Source: a virus (taxonomy: Duplodnaviria; Caudoviricetes). Taken from it: 25,642 nucleotides of DNA. Numbering within the stretch: position 1 is the first letter of the stretch; every line of letters starts with the position of its first letter. Below, piece after piece: positions 3,245-24,408 of the stretch. Position numbers and translations under genes: made by a program. The DNA lies in the IMG/VR virus record IMGVR_UViG_3300012862_000025, positions 1-25,642 of that record. The stretch is one strand, 5' to 3'. The notes under the pieces were generated by a model. That model made no database searches. It was given only the letters and a program-made list of their open reading frames with translations, and was not told the DNA's origin.

Positions 3245-3288
3245 AACTTAGATTTAAAAGGCTTTTAATAACCTTTTAAATCTAAGTT
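3245..3288. repeat. Perfect 17-bp inverted repeat near the prophage end (terminator or protein-binding site)
   Basis: AACTTAGATTTAAAAGG (3245-3261) / CCTTTTAAATCTAAGTT (3272-3288) with a 10-nt spacer, just downstream of the methylase stop. Confidence 0.8.
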
Positions 3289-3305: not shown

Positions 3306-4133
3306 TCAAAACAAAGTCCAATTACCATGAGGATTATCCAAATCGTAATTTGCCGTAAGCACTTCAATTTTCTTTTTCCCTGATCCACCAGTACCATTTG
3401 CCACACTCACACTTTGCTCAATCTTCTTTGTTCTCCAACCGTTTTTAACTGTATATTTCGACAATATTTCACTTGGATAACTACTCATTAGAAATTTACC
3501 CTCTATTTGCTCTAAGGTCTTTAAAAGAGCCTCAAAATCCTCAATTGAATAACCATCATAATGCCCACAATCAGAATTGAAGTACGGAGGATCGCAGTAA
3601 TGAAATGCACCATTATAATCACGTGATTTTATCACTCTCAAAGCATCAGTATTCTCAATTTGAACGCTCTGCAATCTGATTGCATAATCTTCAGTAAAGG
3701 AATCTCGTTTATTACTTATTTTTCGTGAAGTAGTTCCTTTGACAACATCGTATCCCCATGTGCCATCAAGCATTGCACTAAACGATTGTGAAGAAAGCAC
3801 CCAAACAGCCCAAGCCCTCTGTATTCTAGTGAACAGATGTGGATTATTATAAATTACTGTTGCATCAGCATGTAAAGAGCGTGAATGCAGGCTAATTCTC
3901 ACCATTTTTTCTAATTCAATAAATTCATTTTGACACACATCATAAAAATTTATAAGTTCTCGGTTATAGTCATTTATAACCTCTACTTCACTAGGTCTTT
4001 TCGCCCAAAATATTGCACCGCCTCCAACAAATGGTTCTACATAAGTTTGATGTTTTGGAAATAAAGGAACAATTGTACTAACTAAATTTTGCTTACCCCC
4101 GTAATAACTTATAGGTGTTTTTAAATCTCTCAT
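3306..4133 (-). CDS. DNA adenine methyltransferase, Dam/D12 class
   Basis: YYGGKQ, EPFVGGGA (SAM binding), IND and catalytic DPPY motifs. Confidence 0.93.
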   Translation of the reverse strand: MRDLKTPISYYGGKQNLVSTIVPLFPKHQTYVEPFVGGGAIFWAKRPSEVEVINDYNRELINFYDVCQNEFIELEKMVRISLHSRSLHADATVIYNNPHLFTRIQRAWAVWVLSSQSFSAMLDGTWGYDVVKGTTSRKISNKRDSFTEDYAIRLQSVQIENTDALRVIKSRDYNGAFHYCDPPYFNSDCGHYDGYSIEDFEALLKTLEQIEGKFLMSSYPSEILSKYTVKNGWRTKKIEQSVSVANGTGGSGKKKIEVLTANYDLDNPHGNWTLF

Positions 4134-4147
4134 ATCTTTTATTTAGC

Positions 4148-4155
4148 TATATTTG
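4148..4155 (+). promoter_or_regulatory. Putative -7 promoter firing antisense to the late operon
   Basis: TATATTTG matches TAnnTTTG and sits directly 5' of a structured element. Confidence 0.55.
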
Positions 4156-4159
4156 TATC

Positions 4160-4272
4160 TCTCACCTTTTAATGCAAAACACCCCAGTCAGAAGACTTGT
4201 AGTCCTCCGCTTGGGGTGTTTTGCTCTAAAATTAAAAGGTGAGATGTTTAATTTTGCGGAGGACTCTTTTTT
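4160..4272 (+). ncRNA. Putative pseudoknotted small RNA, or a cis element on the minus-strand methylase mRNA
   Basis: Perfect pairings 4160-4173/4231-4244 (14 bp), 4174-4186/4212-4224 (13 bp) and loop 4201-4210/4256-4265 (10 bp), followed by T6 at 4267-4272. Confidence 0.65.
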
Positions 4273-4300
4273 AAGCCTATCCTCCTTAAGGCTTTATATT

Positions 4301-7063
4301 TTATCCGTATCCTTCAAGCCATTGACTTCCTGAATATCTATACTTGTAAGTTCCTCCACGAACAAGACTTGAATTCACTGAAGCTGTGTTATCCATTTTA
4401 TAGATATCGCTTCCATTACCATAAATAGTGATATTACCACCTGTAGCATTTTTAATTAATACCGAACGTCCAACCTCGACCCCTACAGAAGGAAGAAATA
4501 CATTTGAATTTGAACCACCTTTGGCAACATAGTAATCATACTCAGTTATGTAAGTGTCAGCGTTATCGTTATCAACCCTCACTGGCTCGTACATAGCACC
4601 AAGAAATTTTACACTGGATAACATTGCTCCATAACGTCCCCATGCTCCCCAAAGCAATTGTAAAGCTTGTGCTGCTAAATCCTGTCTCCTGACACCAATA
4701 ATACCAGCACGGACATTTGCTGTGAAAATTGGACGTTCAGTAGGTCTTACAACTGAAGCCTCACCAACTAAAGAGCCTGAAAAATCTAAACCTGTAGATG
4801 ACGGCAAAAAGCTCATTCCTGCATTTCTACTCAAAACACCCCAATCGCTTAATATAATTCCACTAGATGGGTTAGTCGGATCAGAACCACCATTATTAAC
4901 GTCTGTTGATCTTAATGTGGTAGTATCAATAACAAAGCCCCCGATCTTACCTTTTGTAGCAGACATTGAACCATCATTGAGGACGTTAAAAGGTGCTGTA
5001 TTCCGATCTTCAGCTGTTGCACCAGCCCAGAATCTTACAGAAGAGTTACCGTTATCGGAAAGCCCTGAAATACCTGCATTTGAATAACCATCAGAACCAA
5101 CACTGATCACCTGAGCAAAGAGACGAACCACATTAATAAAATAAGCAGTAATCGTGTCCGTCTCAATATCGCCTCCACTGATCATGGTGAACATCTTTGT
5201 TGGTCTGAAGGATCGTTTACCTTCAATAACGGATGAAAGCACACCAAGATTAAAAAACCAGTAGCCGTTTTCCGAATCAACAGCTTTCTGATCTGTAGTC
5301 AAAACCCATTCGCCAGTTAAGGCAGTTTGCGAACATTTGGCAGCTAAATAATATGGTTTGGTAGATATTAGACCATCAGCATTAAAAACAGGCAAATCCC
5401 ATATATATCCAAGTCCATCAATTTTATAACGCTTGTGTATGAGTTTGCCAGCGGTCAAACTGATAGCATTAGCATCGTTGCCAGCGTTCACAGTCAGCGA
5501 AACACCATCCAAATCATAGTACATGCTATCCGTGCCGAATAACCCAGCAATAGCCTGAATCAAGGCATTTTCTAAATTCCCATCAGGATCAAATACAAGC
5601 CCTTTAAATTCATTCAAAGCTTGAATGTTCCTGCGATCATTTTCGATGCTGGTTTTGCTTACCTGTGTTACAACCTCTTTAGTTTCTTTGATGTCCTTTT
5701 CAACCTTTTGAATGCGTGTATAAGTGACCTCGTTACCAATCTCAGCCGTGAACTTCATTCCTTGCTCTAGTACAGGGAACATAGCTGGATAGCTGACAGC
5801 CGTAACCCGAATTTTATCATCAAGTCCTATTTTTTCATCCACTACATGAACAATGTCACCTTCGTGCAATTCGGTGTTTTGTCGCTTTAGCCAAAGGATG
5901 TCCGTATCAAGTTCATAGACCACTCTAGGCACTTTGTTAGAATTCAGGTATTCCAATCGTTTTGCTTCCAACTCGGATAAAGCAGCTGTAACATAACTTT
6001 CAGGCATTCTTATGCCAAGGAGCGTATATAAGTCACCGACTTCAGCAACCATAGCTCCAAAAGGGCTAACATTACCATTGGTATCTTCATTTGCTTTGTA
6101 TCGGATTGTTTTTGATGTAGGACTATACGAAAGAATTGTAAACTCCTGACCATTCAAACCTCCCGATTTAAAAACAATTTTCGCTTCTGTCCCTTCAATA
6201 CGTTGACCGTTCAAATCAAAATCTAAGCTGCTATCCGAAATACTAAATGTACGGTCATTGATCTGCTCAATACCTGTAACCGATCCTGTGCGTTTGGGAT
6301 AAATCTCCTGATCTTCAAAAATGCCTTCACGGATTCCATAAAGATCGACCGATAAAGGATCATCAAGATAACCATCCAAAGTCAATTGCTTTTTTGAATA
6401 TCCCTGAGGTAAATTTTGTGTACCTCCTACTGCATAAGCACGTGTAATGATGGAGCTGTTGACCAAAGTTTGACGTGACAATGAGTATAGACCGTTGTCC
6501 TTTCCGTACTGCAACGTCAAAGCTCTAGCCGTCCCCACTATTTTTTTGATGGTTATTTCTTTACCTATGATTTGCCACTCGCATTCAGAGGCTTCAGCAA
6601 TATCATTCAGGGCTGACAAGCAATCAACTTTGTTAAATTCCAAAGCAAACGGCTCAACGTCTTCCAATTCTCCAACCGTCCAGCCCGAATCAACCGAATT
6701 GAGACATTCCAAGAACATGAACATATAATCGTTCAGGTCTCCGAAATAATCAAAAACAAATGCGCCTTCATCCTTCAGCTTGAACCGTTCTAGCGTATGC
6801 CTTGCACCCTGAAAGGTCACAACGTATTCAAATAAGTTGCTTCCTAGTTGGGTGTATTGCGGTTCTTGGTTAACGGTCATTATCTCACCTTTATAGGTCA
6901 GATAGTCACCAATGGTGATATCCAAAACGCTTGTTGAATTTATTGTAAATACAAGCGTATGCTCTGACATTAACCGCTTGTTATGAACCGCTTTATTCAA
7001 CGGCAGTGATATATGTAAATGATTATTTCTGTATGTTTGAATTGTCATTATATTCCCTTTCAT
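4301..7063 (-). CDS. Phage tail tip/hub protein with a C-terminal fibre-like domain
   Basis: 920 aa, downstream of TMP and Dit. YGKDNGL, TRAYAVGG and IYPKRTG segments are typical of Bacteroidota phage tail proteins. Alternative start at 7048. Confidence 0.75.
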   Translation of the reverse strand: MKGNIMTIQTYRNNHLHISLPLNKAVHNKRLMSEHTLVFTINSTSVLDITIGDYLTYKGEIMTVNQEPQYTQLGSNLFEYVVTFQGARHTLERFKLKDEGAFVFDYFGDLNDYMFMFLECLNSVDSGWTVGELEDVEPFALEFNKVDCLSALNDIAEASECEWQIIGKEITIKKIVGTARALTLQYGKDNGLYSLSRQTLVNSSIITRAYAVGGTQNLPQGYSKKQLTLDGYLDDPLSVDLYGIREGIFEDQEIYPKRTGSVTGIEQINDRTFSISDSSLDFDLNGQRIEGTEAKIVFKSGGLNGQEFTILSYSPTSKTIRYKANEDTNGNVSPFGAMVAEVGDLYTLLGIRMPESYVTAALSELEAKRLEYLNSNKVPRVVYELDTDILWLKRQNTELHEGDIVHVVDEKIGLDDKIRVTAVSYPAMFPVLEQGMKFTAEIGNEVTYTRIQKVEKDIKETKEVVTQVSKTSIENDRRNIQALNEFKGLVFDPDGNLENALIQAIAGLFGTDSMYYDLDGVSLTVNAGNDANAISLTAGKLIHKRYKIDGLGYIWDLPVFNADGLISTKPYYLAAKCSQTALTGEWVLTTDQKAVDSENGYWFFNLGVLSSVIEGKRSFRPTKMFTMISGGDIETDTITAYFINVVRLFAQVISVGSDGYSNAGISGLSDNGNSSVRFWAGATAEDRNTAPFNVLNDGSMSATKGKIGGFVIDTTTLRSTDVNNGGSDPTNPSSGIILSDWGVLSRNAGMSFLPSSTGLDFSGSLVGEASVVRPTERPIFTANVRAGIIGVRRQDLAAQALQLLWGAWGRYGAMLSSVKFLGAMYEPVRVDNDNADTYITEYDYYVAKGGSNSNVFLPSVGVEVGRSVLIKNATGGNITIYGNGSDIYKMDNTASVNSSLVRGGTYKYRYSGSQWLEGYG

Positions 7064-21732: not shown

Positions 21733-24408
21733 ATGGCAAAGAACAACAGACAAAGAACAAAACAGAAAATTGTTGCTGGAAAGAATACTTCAGCACCGAT
21801 TATCCAAAATATTTCAATTCAACCTTTTGCAAGGCAAAGTCAGGATATATCCAGCTGGAGGAATGCAACCCGATCAGCGGAATCACATATTCCAAGACGT
21901 GTTTACTTGTATGATCTGTATCACGACATCTCCACTACGGACGGACAGATCATAGCGGTATGGGGCAAACGGCAGGATGCGATTACTACGGCAAATTGGG
22001 AATTCACCGATAAAGACGGCAATCCAGTCGATGAAATAAACGAGCTTATTGACTGTATTGGCTTTGAGGATTTATTAAAGGAAATAATAGATTCCAAAGC
22101 ATGGGGTTATTCGATGTGTGAACCTACCTTTTTCGTTAATGAAAATGGTCAGAATGAATTTGAACTTTATTCAGTTCCAAAGAAGCACATGAGACCTGAA
22201 AGGGGAATCATTGTGAAACACCAAACGGATGATGAAGGAATAAATATCAACGATGGTATTTATAACAAAACCATAATGCGATTTGGTAAAGCAAATGATT
22301 TGGGTCTGTTGCTTTCTGCTGCTATGTACTCAATCTATAAAAGAGGCAGTACATCCGATTGGGCTGAATTTATTGAAATTTTTGGGCGTGGTATCATTGA
22401 TGCTGAATGGGACGGATTTGATGAAGGGCAACGTCAGCAACTTGCGAAAGCAATCCGTGAAATGGGATCAGGGGGAATCATGATCCGACCTTCAGGAACA
22501 AAGGTTGATATCAAGAACAATACAGGTAATGCCAACGGTCAGCTTCAGGATACTTTTGTAAGTAAAATGGATGCGTATATTTCAAAGGTTCTTTTGGGAT
22601 CAACGGAAACAACAGATTCCAGCACAAGAAGCGGTTACGCACAAGCCGAAATACACCAAAAAGAAGATCATAAAAAAAATGAATCCGACCTTCAGTTTGT
22701 AAGACGTTCATTGAACTCGCAGTTCATCAAAATTCTGAAGGCTGCTGGATTTGACACCAAAGGAGGAACGTTTGTCATCAAAAAAGACAAGAACCTTGAT
22801 AAGACGTCCTATGAAATACACAAGTCCATGCGTAAAGATTTGGGAATACCAATTGACGATGATTTTTATTACGAAGAATATGGAGTAAGAAAGCCCGACA
22901 ACTATGAGGAATTAAAAAACGAGCTTGAAGATAGCAAAAACAAAGATTTAGAAACTAAATCCGACAACAAAAATGCAGATACCCCCGAACTTTCAGAGGA
23001 AGAAAACACCGACACCCCCAACGAAAACAAGGAGGATAAACGCAAAAAGCTATCTTGGTTCAGAAGGTTATTGCAGCTTTTTCACCCAGCCCCGATAGCA
23101 CAAGACAGACAGCTAGTCGGGGCGTTTGGAGATCACCACACGAATAATATACAGTTAGCAAAATTCACCGCTTCCAAAGCTTTTGACACCATAAAAGATG
23201 ATGTCATTCAAAGAGCTTGGATTGCAAAAGGAACATTGAATTTTGACACTCAGCTGTATGAATTCACGGCTACTACTTTAACAATGGGTTTTGTTCAGGG
23301 ATGGAAAACAAAGCCAACGAAGTTAATGGATTTGGGCTTTTCCTATGGTGTAGACGATCCAGCAACATTAACAGCCTACGAGATGAATCTATTTAGGTTC
23401 GCTGGTGCTAAGACATTATATGAAGCCCAGCAATTAAATGAGTTATTCCGTAAAGCAAAATCATTCCGTGAGTTCTATGACACGGCAAGCTCAATGATGG
23501 ACGTTCACAATAAAGCTTGGTTGGAAACCGAATATAACACAGCTATTGCAGCCGGTGAAATGGCTTCCACTTACAATAGGCTGATGAAGCAAACGGATAA
23601 TTTCCCTTACTGGCAATATAAGACTGTTGCAGATGAAAGGGTACGTCATTCACATGCTTTATTGCACGATATTATATTACCGTGGAATCACCCAGCATGG
23701 AAATACATTTTACCTCCTAACGATTGGAATTGTCGTTGCTGGATTGTTCCAAGAACTAAAGCTGAGGTTACGGATGAAGAATTGAAAGCTTCAGAAGAAA
23801 AGGTTAAACTGTATTTGGATAGCCCAGAATTTAAGAAAGCAGCTAAAGGGGGTTGGGGTATAAACAGAGCGGACAAAGGTCAGGTATTTACCGAAAACCA
23901 ACACTATACAACGGATTATCTTGATGTAACCAAACGGATGAATAATCTAGGCTATAAGGATTGGGGTCTAAAACCGCTGGATCAAAATTTCAATACAAAA
24001 CAGTTCAGTCCCAAATTTGGTGAAGATCAAATTGAAGATGCAATTGAAGATTTTACAGGCAAACTCAAAAAGGTTACATCCAAGAAGTTTGGTATTACCG
24101 ACTATAACAATAGGATTATTACCATTGATAAAGCTACTTTAAAATCTCATACAAATACCCGTTATCAAAAGTACAGGACTAGGCATCTGTATTTATCTGA
24201 AGTGGAAAACATTTTAAACGCTCCTGATGAAGTATGGTTACAGAATTACCGAAACCAAAAGTATCAATCGTTTATATACTTGAAGTATTACAACGATCAA
24301 GCTGTTGTAGTGGTTTGTACACTAACGGATAGTTTAGAGCTGAAAATCGAAACATGGCACAAGCTGGATGATACAAGGCTTAGAAGGGGATTGCTGATAA
24401 AGAACTAA
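21733..24408 (+). CDS. Portal (Mu gp29/DUF935-like) fused to MuF (gp30) and a C-terminal PBECR-like nuclease
   Basis: Portal: DWAEFIEIFG, ISKVLLGSTETT, YAQAEIH. Acidic linker. MuF: WLETEYNTA, WQYKTVADERVRHSH, PPNDWNCRC. Tail: ILNAPDEVWL..YLKYY..VVVV..TW..RRGLLI. Confidence 0.85.
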   Translation: MAKNNRQRTKQKIVAGKNTSAPIIQNISIQPFARQSQDISSWRNATRSAESHIPRRVYLYDLYHDISTTDGQIIAVWGKRQDAITTANWEFTDKDGNPVDEINELIDCIGFEDLLKEIIDSKAWGYSMCEPTFFVNENGQNEFELYSVPKKHMRPERGIIVKHQTDDEGININDGIYNKTIMRFGKANDLGLLLSAAMYSIYKRGSTSDWAEFIEIFGRGIIDAEWDGFDEGQRQQLAKAIREMGSGGIMIRPSGTKVDIKNNTGNANGQLQDTFVSKMDAYISKVLLGSTETTDSSTRSGYAQAEIHQKEDHKKNESDLQFVRRSLNSQFIKILKAAGFDTKGGTFVIKKDKNLDKTSYEIHKSMRKDLGIPIDDDFYYEEYGVRKPDNYEELKNELEDSKNKDLETKSDNKNADTPELSEEENTDTPNENKEDKRKKLSWFRRLLQLFHPAPIAQDRQLVGAFGDHHTNNIQLAKFTASKAFDTIKDDVIQRAWIAKGTLNFDTQLYEFTATTLTMGFVQGWKTKPTKLMDLGFSYGVDDPATLTAYEMNLFRFAGAKTLYEAQQLNELFRKAKSFREFYDTASSMMDVHNKAWLETEYNTAIAAGEMASTYNRLMKQTDNFPYWQYKTVADERVRHSHALLHDIILPWNHPAWKYILPPNDWNCRCWIVPRTKAEVTDEELKASEEKVKLYLDSPEFKKAAKGGWGINRADKGQVFTENQHYTTDYLDVTKRMNNLGYKDWGLKPLDQNFNTKQFSPKFGEDQIEDAIEDFTGKLKKVTSKKFGITDYNNRIITIDKATLKSHTNTRYQKYRTRHLYLSEVENILNAPDEVWLQNYRNQKYQSFIYLKYYNDQAVVVVCTLTDSLELKIETWHKLDDTRLRRGLLIKN

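Follow-up and report, generated by a model that had tools for sequence, protein, structure and literature searches.

A covarying, pseudoknotted RNA family beside DNA modification genes of Mu-like Bacteroidota phages and its predicted pairing with the methylase leader

Where the late operon of a Mu-like prophage ends in a D12-class DNA adenine methyltransferase gene, the region just before that gene is rich in complementary strands, which raises the question of whether an RNA is made there, from which strand it comes, and what it does to the methylase. The locus lies in a viral sequence of 25,642 nucleotides, called the window below, which gene-family matches identify as the late half of the prophage (portal, MuF, terminase, protease, capsid, and tail genes), with host-type genes to its left. 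The methylase is the final gene of the late operon and the predicted target of the RNA element described here; a tail gene directly precedes it, with no gene between (Table 1). Among named phages, the Winogradskyella phage Peternella_1 carries the nearest relative of the methylase (78%), and for this reason the host is presumably a member of the Bacteroidota. A 72-codon ORF on the plus strand (4115-4333) had no family match and was treated as chance. Just past the methylase stop, near the prophage right end, is an AT-rich palindrome with 22-nt arms (3245-3288; 91%), and similar AT-rich palindromes are also seen at the Hankyphage end. Elsewhere in the window, a trypsin-like fragment (PF13365; 2834-3229, minus strand) is probably a host gene cut by prophage insertion, and a single 891-aa ORF (21733-24408, plus strand) combines Mu portal, MuF, and PBECR2 nuclease-like domains, an arrangement reminiscent of a MuF polymorphic toxin joined to the portal. 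Two perfect stems of at least 10 bp also lie at approximately 240-390, upstream of a serine dehydratase gene.

An earlier note, made from the sequence alone, had described a 14-bp plus 13-bp hairpin with a 6-nt bulge before the methylase, a loop able to pair with a strand 3' of the stem, a T-tract, and a promoter box. When the sequence was checked, the hairpin was found in full, as were the complementarity of its loop, AGTCCTCCGC, to the strand beyond the stem and the -7 box, TATATTTG, just 5' of the hairpin. The run of six Ts is also present, not immediately after the pairing strand as had been stated but after one intervening C (4266). All of the helices that had been counted as 37 perfect pairs exist; their simultaneous formation is unlikely, because an 11-nt linker would need to span 27 bp. 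Three further helices, not described by the earlier note, were found (P3, P4, and the accessory hairpin), and the pseudoknot helix P0 probably forms in an alternative fold in which P4 replaces the inner half of P1. Folding z-scores were -6.8 for the plus strand and -9.5 for the minus strand, with none of 200 shuffles as good. The element holds three perfect stems of at least 10 bp; none of 3000 dinucleotide shuffles reached even two, and no other sampled 126-nt stretch of the window holds three.

Table 1. Coordinates of the element, its predicted RNA, and the flanking genes in the window
Feature	Position	Strand	Details and basis
Long hairpin	4160..4244	+	P1 4160-4173/4231-4244 (14 bp); P2 4174-4186/4212-4224 (13 bp); bulge 4225-4230
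Pseudoknot helix P0	4201..4265	+	Loop 4201-4210 with 4256-4265; covariation, wobbles
P3, apex helix of the mRNA-strand rod	4189-4197/4201-4209	-	Minus-strand fold; same strand contested with P0
P4, 9-bp helix	4228-4236/4247-4255	+	Alternative to inner half of P1; dispensable among family members
Accessory hairpin (P5/P6)	4273..4294	-	Loop complements 4258-4263; can pair with P0 flank strand on the mRNA
Guide position	4187..4200	+	Loop segment unpaired when the pseudoknot forms; split-form guides occupy the same place
Sigma-ABfr -7 box TAnnTTTG, predicted promoter	4148..4155	+	Predicted start near 4159-4160; sequence and family conservation
U-tract after P0, predicted 3' end	4267..4272	+	Conserved U-richness
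Predicted RNA, ~114 nt, both ends predicted	4159..4272	+	Model R1 match; wobble direction
D12-class DNA adenine methyltransferase	3306..4133	-	PF02086, E 7e-24; phrog_56; DpnM/Dam relatives in PDB
Tail protein gene, same operon, upstream of methylase	4301..7063	-	PF06605

The element is a member of a large covarying RNA family in Mu-like Bacteroidota phages, Hankyphage and Peternella_1 among them. Among the best 80 of 119 methylase relatives, 58 loci contained the element: 48 with the same architecture directly upstream of the methylase (by judgement, and including two duplicates), 4 with the element before a thymidylate synthase gene one step upstream of the methylase, and 6 with the element directly behind the methylase. 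Two forms are distinguished below, the overlap form, to which the window element belongs, and the split form, in which the element follows the gene. The descriptor gave 4 matches in 115 kb of shuffled DNA; two marginal matches (L042 and L043) were set aside, and two copies that it missed (L038 and L047) were found by the covariance model. Motif-only scans of IMG/VR gave estimates of ~620 and ~540 stretches, and 95 of 120 loci from the first scan carried complete copies. Motif matches in GTDB were mostly in entries titled Bacteroidales (65 of 72), and the remaining 7, otherwise labelled, may be binning errors. A covariance model, R1, built only from 40 gut-type phage copies, matched the window at 4144-4276 (36.6 bits, E 5.9e-7) and nowhere else in it. 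The same model matched a single full-length copy in each of the phages Hankyphage and Peternella_1, on the cassette strand and at the genome right end, and detected 6 of the 14 split-form loci tried (E 4e-5 to 0.36). The methylase leader of phiHAP-1 gave no R1 match; lying between the tail gene and the methylase (L395:1345-1486), it forms several hairpins over 140 nt, in a fold unlike that of the element.

Motif-anchored matches numbered 131, including a few reverse-strand double counts, and 116 of them head a cassette of HTH, thymidylate synthase, D12 methylase, Mom, or GNAT-ATPase genes; the proteins preceded by the element in this family include true Mom proteins (PF25680, E 2.5e-62). The cassette enzymes are mutually unrelated, which suits base pairing more than ligand or enzyme binding. 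Five of the 131 matches head lysis-type genes. The full motif was seen before holin/endolysin-type genes, rather than modification genes, in L098, L100, L135, L147, and L268. Immediately behind the reverse promoter, gut phages encode an 80-aa HTH protein with weak likeness to Mor (L081:1365-1604, with 103 comparable first genes elsewhere), which could regulate the element RNA.

Covariation among homologues, which the earlier note had named as one check of its proposal, was present for the pseudoknot and hairpin helices by both the covariance model and helix-swap tests. When 47 divergent copies were aligned with MAFFT, RNAalifold returned no pairs, an alignment failure, and anchored helix tests were used in its place together with the covariance model. 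Double changes were found in 18 of 18 pairs of the R1 alignment (288 cells versus 93 shuffled), an alignment that is fitted to the structure and takes in weak and reverse-strand matches. When the alignment was not fitted to P0, all 8 P0 pairs still showed double changes, with 37 cells versus 10.8 shuffled and 0 of 500 shuffles reaching this level, relatedness being ignored by the shuffle. For the helix tests, 89 representatives with <80% identity were taken from 111 copies, with L038 and L120 left out. Own scores exceeded cross scores for P0 (26.2 versus 20.9), P1 (31.2 versus 18.5), P2 (32.2 versus 16.5), and P4 (14.9 versus 10.8); P3 showed weak covariation, at just 15.1 versus 13.6, with 8 of 89 copies above the 95th percentile of cross scores. 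Between sister phages, P1 is swapped as a whole helix. The G-rich strand upstream (P5/P6) scored 15.3 versus 11.8 and 11.3 at control positions (p ~1e-8, n = 89).

The direction of G.U wobbles points to the strand opposite the methylase, with antisense to sense counts of 85:3 for P0, 59:12 for P1, and 63:6 for P4 and a weaker lean for P2 (51:29), whereas P3 favours the mRNA strand (117 sense versus 32 antisense). The strand opposite the methylase also carries, 0-5 nt before P1, the box TAnnTTTG, which is given as the Bacteroides -7 consensus in the available text of PMC7366714. Of the 89 representatives, in the choice of which the box played a part, 86 carry it, as do all 64 distinct matches of a pattern lacking the promoter term, from which 4 short loci were dropped. 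It supplies the only invariant columns across 47 sequences, and a -33 TTTG accompanies it in 11 of 89 representatives. A U-tract (at least 5 of 8 positions) follows P0 in 83 of 89 copies versus 18 of 89 at a control position. No ordinary Rho-independent terminator, with a short hairpin before the U-tract, was found at 3900-4500 of the window, where the pseudoknot precedes the U-tract instead; the sigma-70 scan does not cover the TAnnTTTG promoter type. At the level of sequence only, the strand opposite the target bears the marks of a cis-encoded antisense RNA, a promoter and a terminator of its own.

RNA-seq was available as contigs for all 22 runs listed, 8 of which were placed on a Hankyphage-type locus. 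Depth in these unstranded contigs was shallower beyond the element in 4 of the 8 runs (X14, X15, X16, and X18), with strand, ends, and level unreadable, and flat, with one spanning contig, in the other 4; depth was not used as evidence. Run X15 also contains an 88-nt deep contig, which may be a repeat. Promoter box, U-tract, wobble direction, and covariation together lend good support to the plus-strand RNA antisense to the methylase leader that the earlier note had proposed, and make it very probable that a structured RNA, likely of 110-150 nt, is transcribed from the strand opposite the methylase, the plus strand of the window.

Searches against Rfam 15 returned no match in the window at the gathering threshold and, when relaxed to E 10, only sub-threshold miRNA-type hairpins for the element. 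Nor was the element matched in any of 33 homologue loci (20 + 13), the matches in the set of 13 being RT-3 elsewhere in L280 and a weak CrcZ match off the element. The RT-3 match (L280:497-646; 146.6 bits) lies in a Hankyphage-type DGR region, ~1.9 kb from the element. A D12-methyl motif, reportedly described by Weinberg in 2017, is said to be a structured RNA beside D12 methylase genes, and we take it to be one of the Rfam 15 families. The element shares with it a structured RNA next to D12 methylase genes and may differ from it, in that no Rfam 15 model matches the element in the window or the 33 homologue loci; the earlier note could not tell whether the two were the same. The term D12-methyl is absent from the main text of PMC5737381. 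Five candidates beside D12 genes described in the available text of PMC10690425 are 49-85 nt long and come from Firmicutes, proteobacterial, or unassigned marine hosts. As described in the corresponding part of PMC8040213, HMP2_5423 is from Ruminococcus, and the Bacteroidales candidates, HMP2_1881 and HMP2_1560, have few D12 neighbours. The alignment files of these two papers, and the supplement of PMC5737381, could hold the motif, such that some overlap of the element with their candidates is possible. Literature searches found no paper on the element, and the literature found gave no account of how Bacteroidota phages time DNA modification. For Hankyphage, stranded RNA-seq, strains, and CRISPRi exist, and the available portion of PMC12135933 makes no mention of the element RNA.

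A possible partner for the RNA can be seen in the split form. A pattern for one subtype found 11 viral loci, all directly following the methylase stop and four of them repeating earlier homologue loci, and 9 loci in metagenomes, three of them duplicates; a pattern for a second subtype gave 1 real locus of 5. Split-form methylases have a short hairpin before the ATG, and the loop beside P0, ~850 nt away, is complementary to the 5' arm of this hairpin. Of 17 loci examined, 15 could be scored, and in all 15 the cognate leader formed the best duplex among 65-189 windows, with the guide on the antisense strand. Duplex energies were -25.6 kcal/mol for own versus -13.8 kcal/mol for cross pairs, and the own leader was the best of all leaders in 10 of 15 loci and within the top three in 13. 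Mismatches between guide and leader comprised 12 antisense-compatible changes, 1 in the opposite sense (a 12:1 wobble bias), and 4 transversions; the loci are partly kin, with ~6-7 guide types by eye. The predicted target of the guide is the 5' arm and part of the loop of the hairpin. Counted from the first ATG, most duplexes stop 16-28 nt short of the start, clear of the ribosome window, and that of L405 stops 44 nt short. With the target blocked, predicted openness of the start (-15 to +5) rose from 0.24-0.53, a hidden state, to 0.38-0.94 in 10 of 10 split loci, a rise that follows by construction, because one hairpin arm is blocked.

When a longer guide was used for L410, its cognate leader ranked second of 49, and L417 had no methylase in the available DNA. 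L034 and L036 are split forms without a leader match; these copies (L034:2330-2460 and L036/L419) have one more hairpin within the loop. Short hairpins near the start, resembling those targeted in the split form, were also seen ~50 nt before the methylase ATG in L051, L053, L059, L062, L072, L073, and L078. Five of these seven contigs end at the methylase gene, and no descriptor match was found behind the methylase in L072 (139 nt) or L078 (1 kb). Split and overlap forms are intermixed on a methylase tree of 84 rows, a quick, unfinished version from which no direction is claimed. Covarying complementarity to a distant target, as expected of a trans-acting base-pairing RNA, was found for the split form and not for the overlap form. 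Pairing of the guide RNA with the methylase leader is likely.

For the overlap form, no consistent second target in trans was found in the window, Hankyphage, Peternella_1, or the 89 flanks. The guide of the window element complements the P3 apex of the mRNA rod. Across 45 methylase-first overlap copies, leader strands paired better with the start region of the same copy than with others (p 7e-4 and 1e-4), a signal missing in 39 gut copies (p 0.63 and 0.93). The start region of the free mRNA in the window is predicted to be 0.77 unpaired, open where that of the split form is hidden by the mRNA hairpin, and shows no clear OFF state. As a 76% repeat of the P1 arm, this region could still form a weak OFF pairing in the window.

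We propose, as a reading with an even chance of being correct, that a pseudoknot-held guide RNA pairs with the leader of the methylase mRNA, with activation of translation as the most likely result, which would make it an RNA counterpart of Com. Transcription from the TAnnTTTG box would yield the 110-150-nt RNA and would terminate after P0, the helix that would supply the stem ahead of the U-tract. P0 would displace P3, and the guide loop thereby freed would be held open by the pseudoknot. By pairing with the hairpin 5' arm, the guide of a split-form locus would release the 3' arm beside the ATG. The overlap-form guide would pair with the P3 apex of its own complement, and the RNA would take up leader strands otherwise able to pair with the start region. 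The two RNAs must meet, and one might speculate that the methylase would thereby stay low at one prophage copy and rise with genome replication. Activation is favoured because of the anatomy of the split form and the precedent of Mu Com; against it, in copies where P1 ends 9-13 nt before the ATG, a full duplex would cover the same bases as the rod.

Known RNAs offer partial parallels. DsrA and RprA are activating sRNAs that open an inhibitory hairpin on rpoS, and the element RNA would likewise pair with the 5' arm of a stem that hides the start, but differs in being phage-borne, in having one dedicated target and a 13-25-nt pseudoknot-held guide, and in its overlap form. IncI and IncB plasmids combine Inc RNA with a repZ pseudoknot, and here too antisense RNA, loop pseudoknot, and the proposed translation control would share one short region, but the plasmid pseudoknot lies in the mRNA and is blocked by the antisense RNA, whereas wobbles place that of the element in the antisense RNA. 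Com of phage Mu opens a translation inhibition structure (PMC6483171), and the toxic Mom is silent in lysogens (PMC12707154). The likeness to the Mu system, as far as the available text of PMC6483171 describes it, is a modification gene at the genome right end and, in the split form, a predicted start-hiding hairpin that would need opening in trans; the differences are that the candidate opener is an RNA rather than a zinc finger and that the element overlaps the leader or sits behind the gene. A Com-type CCCC zinc finger motif was absent from all called genes in the window, which is part of the prophage only.

The same RNA and pairing could act in the opposite direction, with an antisense RNA made in the lysogen silencing leaky methylase or Mom mRNA through duplex decay, blocked coupling, or promoter collision until late transcription overrides it. 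We regard such repression as rather unlikely, and still as a close rival to activation, above all for the overlap form of the window. It would suit a host-type promoter that faces into the prophage and is convergent with the late operon in both forms, the predicted open start of the window mRNA, and the occurrence of the motif before lysis genes as well. Antisense repression is also known for EcoRI and Eco29kI (PMC12707154), where, as is predicted here, a reverse promoter directs RNA against a modification or restriction transcript; those RNAs repress a nuclease, with no conserved pseudoknot described in the available text of that source, whereas the gene here is an orphan phage methylase. What repression accounts for poorly is the split form, in which the guide would pair with the hairpin arm lying farther from the start, in a hairpin already hiding the start, and the duplex avoids the ribosome window when covering the start would be simpler.

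The remaining readings seem to us improbable. The earlier note had offered, as its other possibility, a two-state switch on the minus-strand mRNA, and a cis-acting switch or attenuator of this kind, alternating between the rod P1-P2-P3 and P0 plus P4 under upstream translation or a protein, with the reverse promoter secondary, would explain why P3 wobbles favour the mRNA strand and would make use of the alternative helices P5-P0-P3, which could act as a relay close to the stop codon of the upstream gene. P3 is indeed kept on the mRNA strand. A switch on the mRNA alone is insufficient, for the element also sits behind the methylase, in 6 homologue loci and all 11 subtype matches, and can there match the leader; the wobbles of P0, P1, and P4 favour the opposite strand, and a protein-driven version lacks a Com-like ORF in the part of the prophage covered by the window. 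We attach equally little probability to a stable RNA or terminator-insulator at the phage right end, stopping host read-through or binding a protein, with the leader match as a duplication relic. The scaffold is indeed more elaborate than simple antisense control requires, both Hankyphage and Peternella_1 have the element close to the genome end, and the overlap form is without a trans target, but guide and leader change jointly between lineages in a fixed register and with the strong wobble bias, and the two forms are intermixed on the unfinished methylase tree. A SAM riboswitch is unlikely, and SAM sensing and self-cleavage by a ribozyme, considered together, have a very small probability: a pseudoknot with competing helices next to a methylase would be in keeping with either, but the sole invariant columns are those of the promoter box, the element also precedes Mom and lysis genes and lies 3' of the methylase, and Rfam holds no match.

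The phage RNA family is real and widespread, apparently uncatalogued, and offers a predicted guide-target pair. In its widest form, which we advance tentatively and at somewhat less than even confidence, the proposal is of a phylum-wide RNA family that replaces Com with RNA, in which a pseudoknot doubles as terminator stem and a swappable guide unlocks toxic modification genes, either overlapping them or from behind. Phage DNA modification shields progeny from restriction and can be toxic to the lysogen, and the element is a candidate controller of modification in hundreds of phage records, including Hankyphage. The split form provides natural guide-target pairs with built-in compensatory alleles. 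If the proposal is true, the design is an unusual one, with a single pseudoknot serving both to end the RNA and to free the guide, and the element would be a re-aimable, compact activator, useful as a gene-control part for gut Bacteroides.
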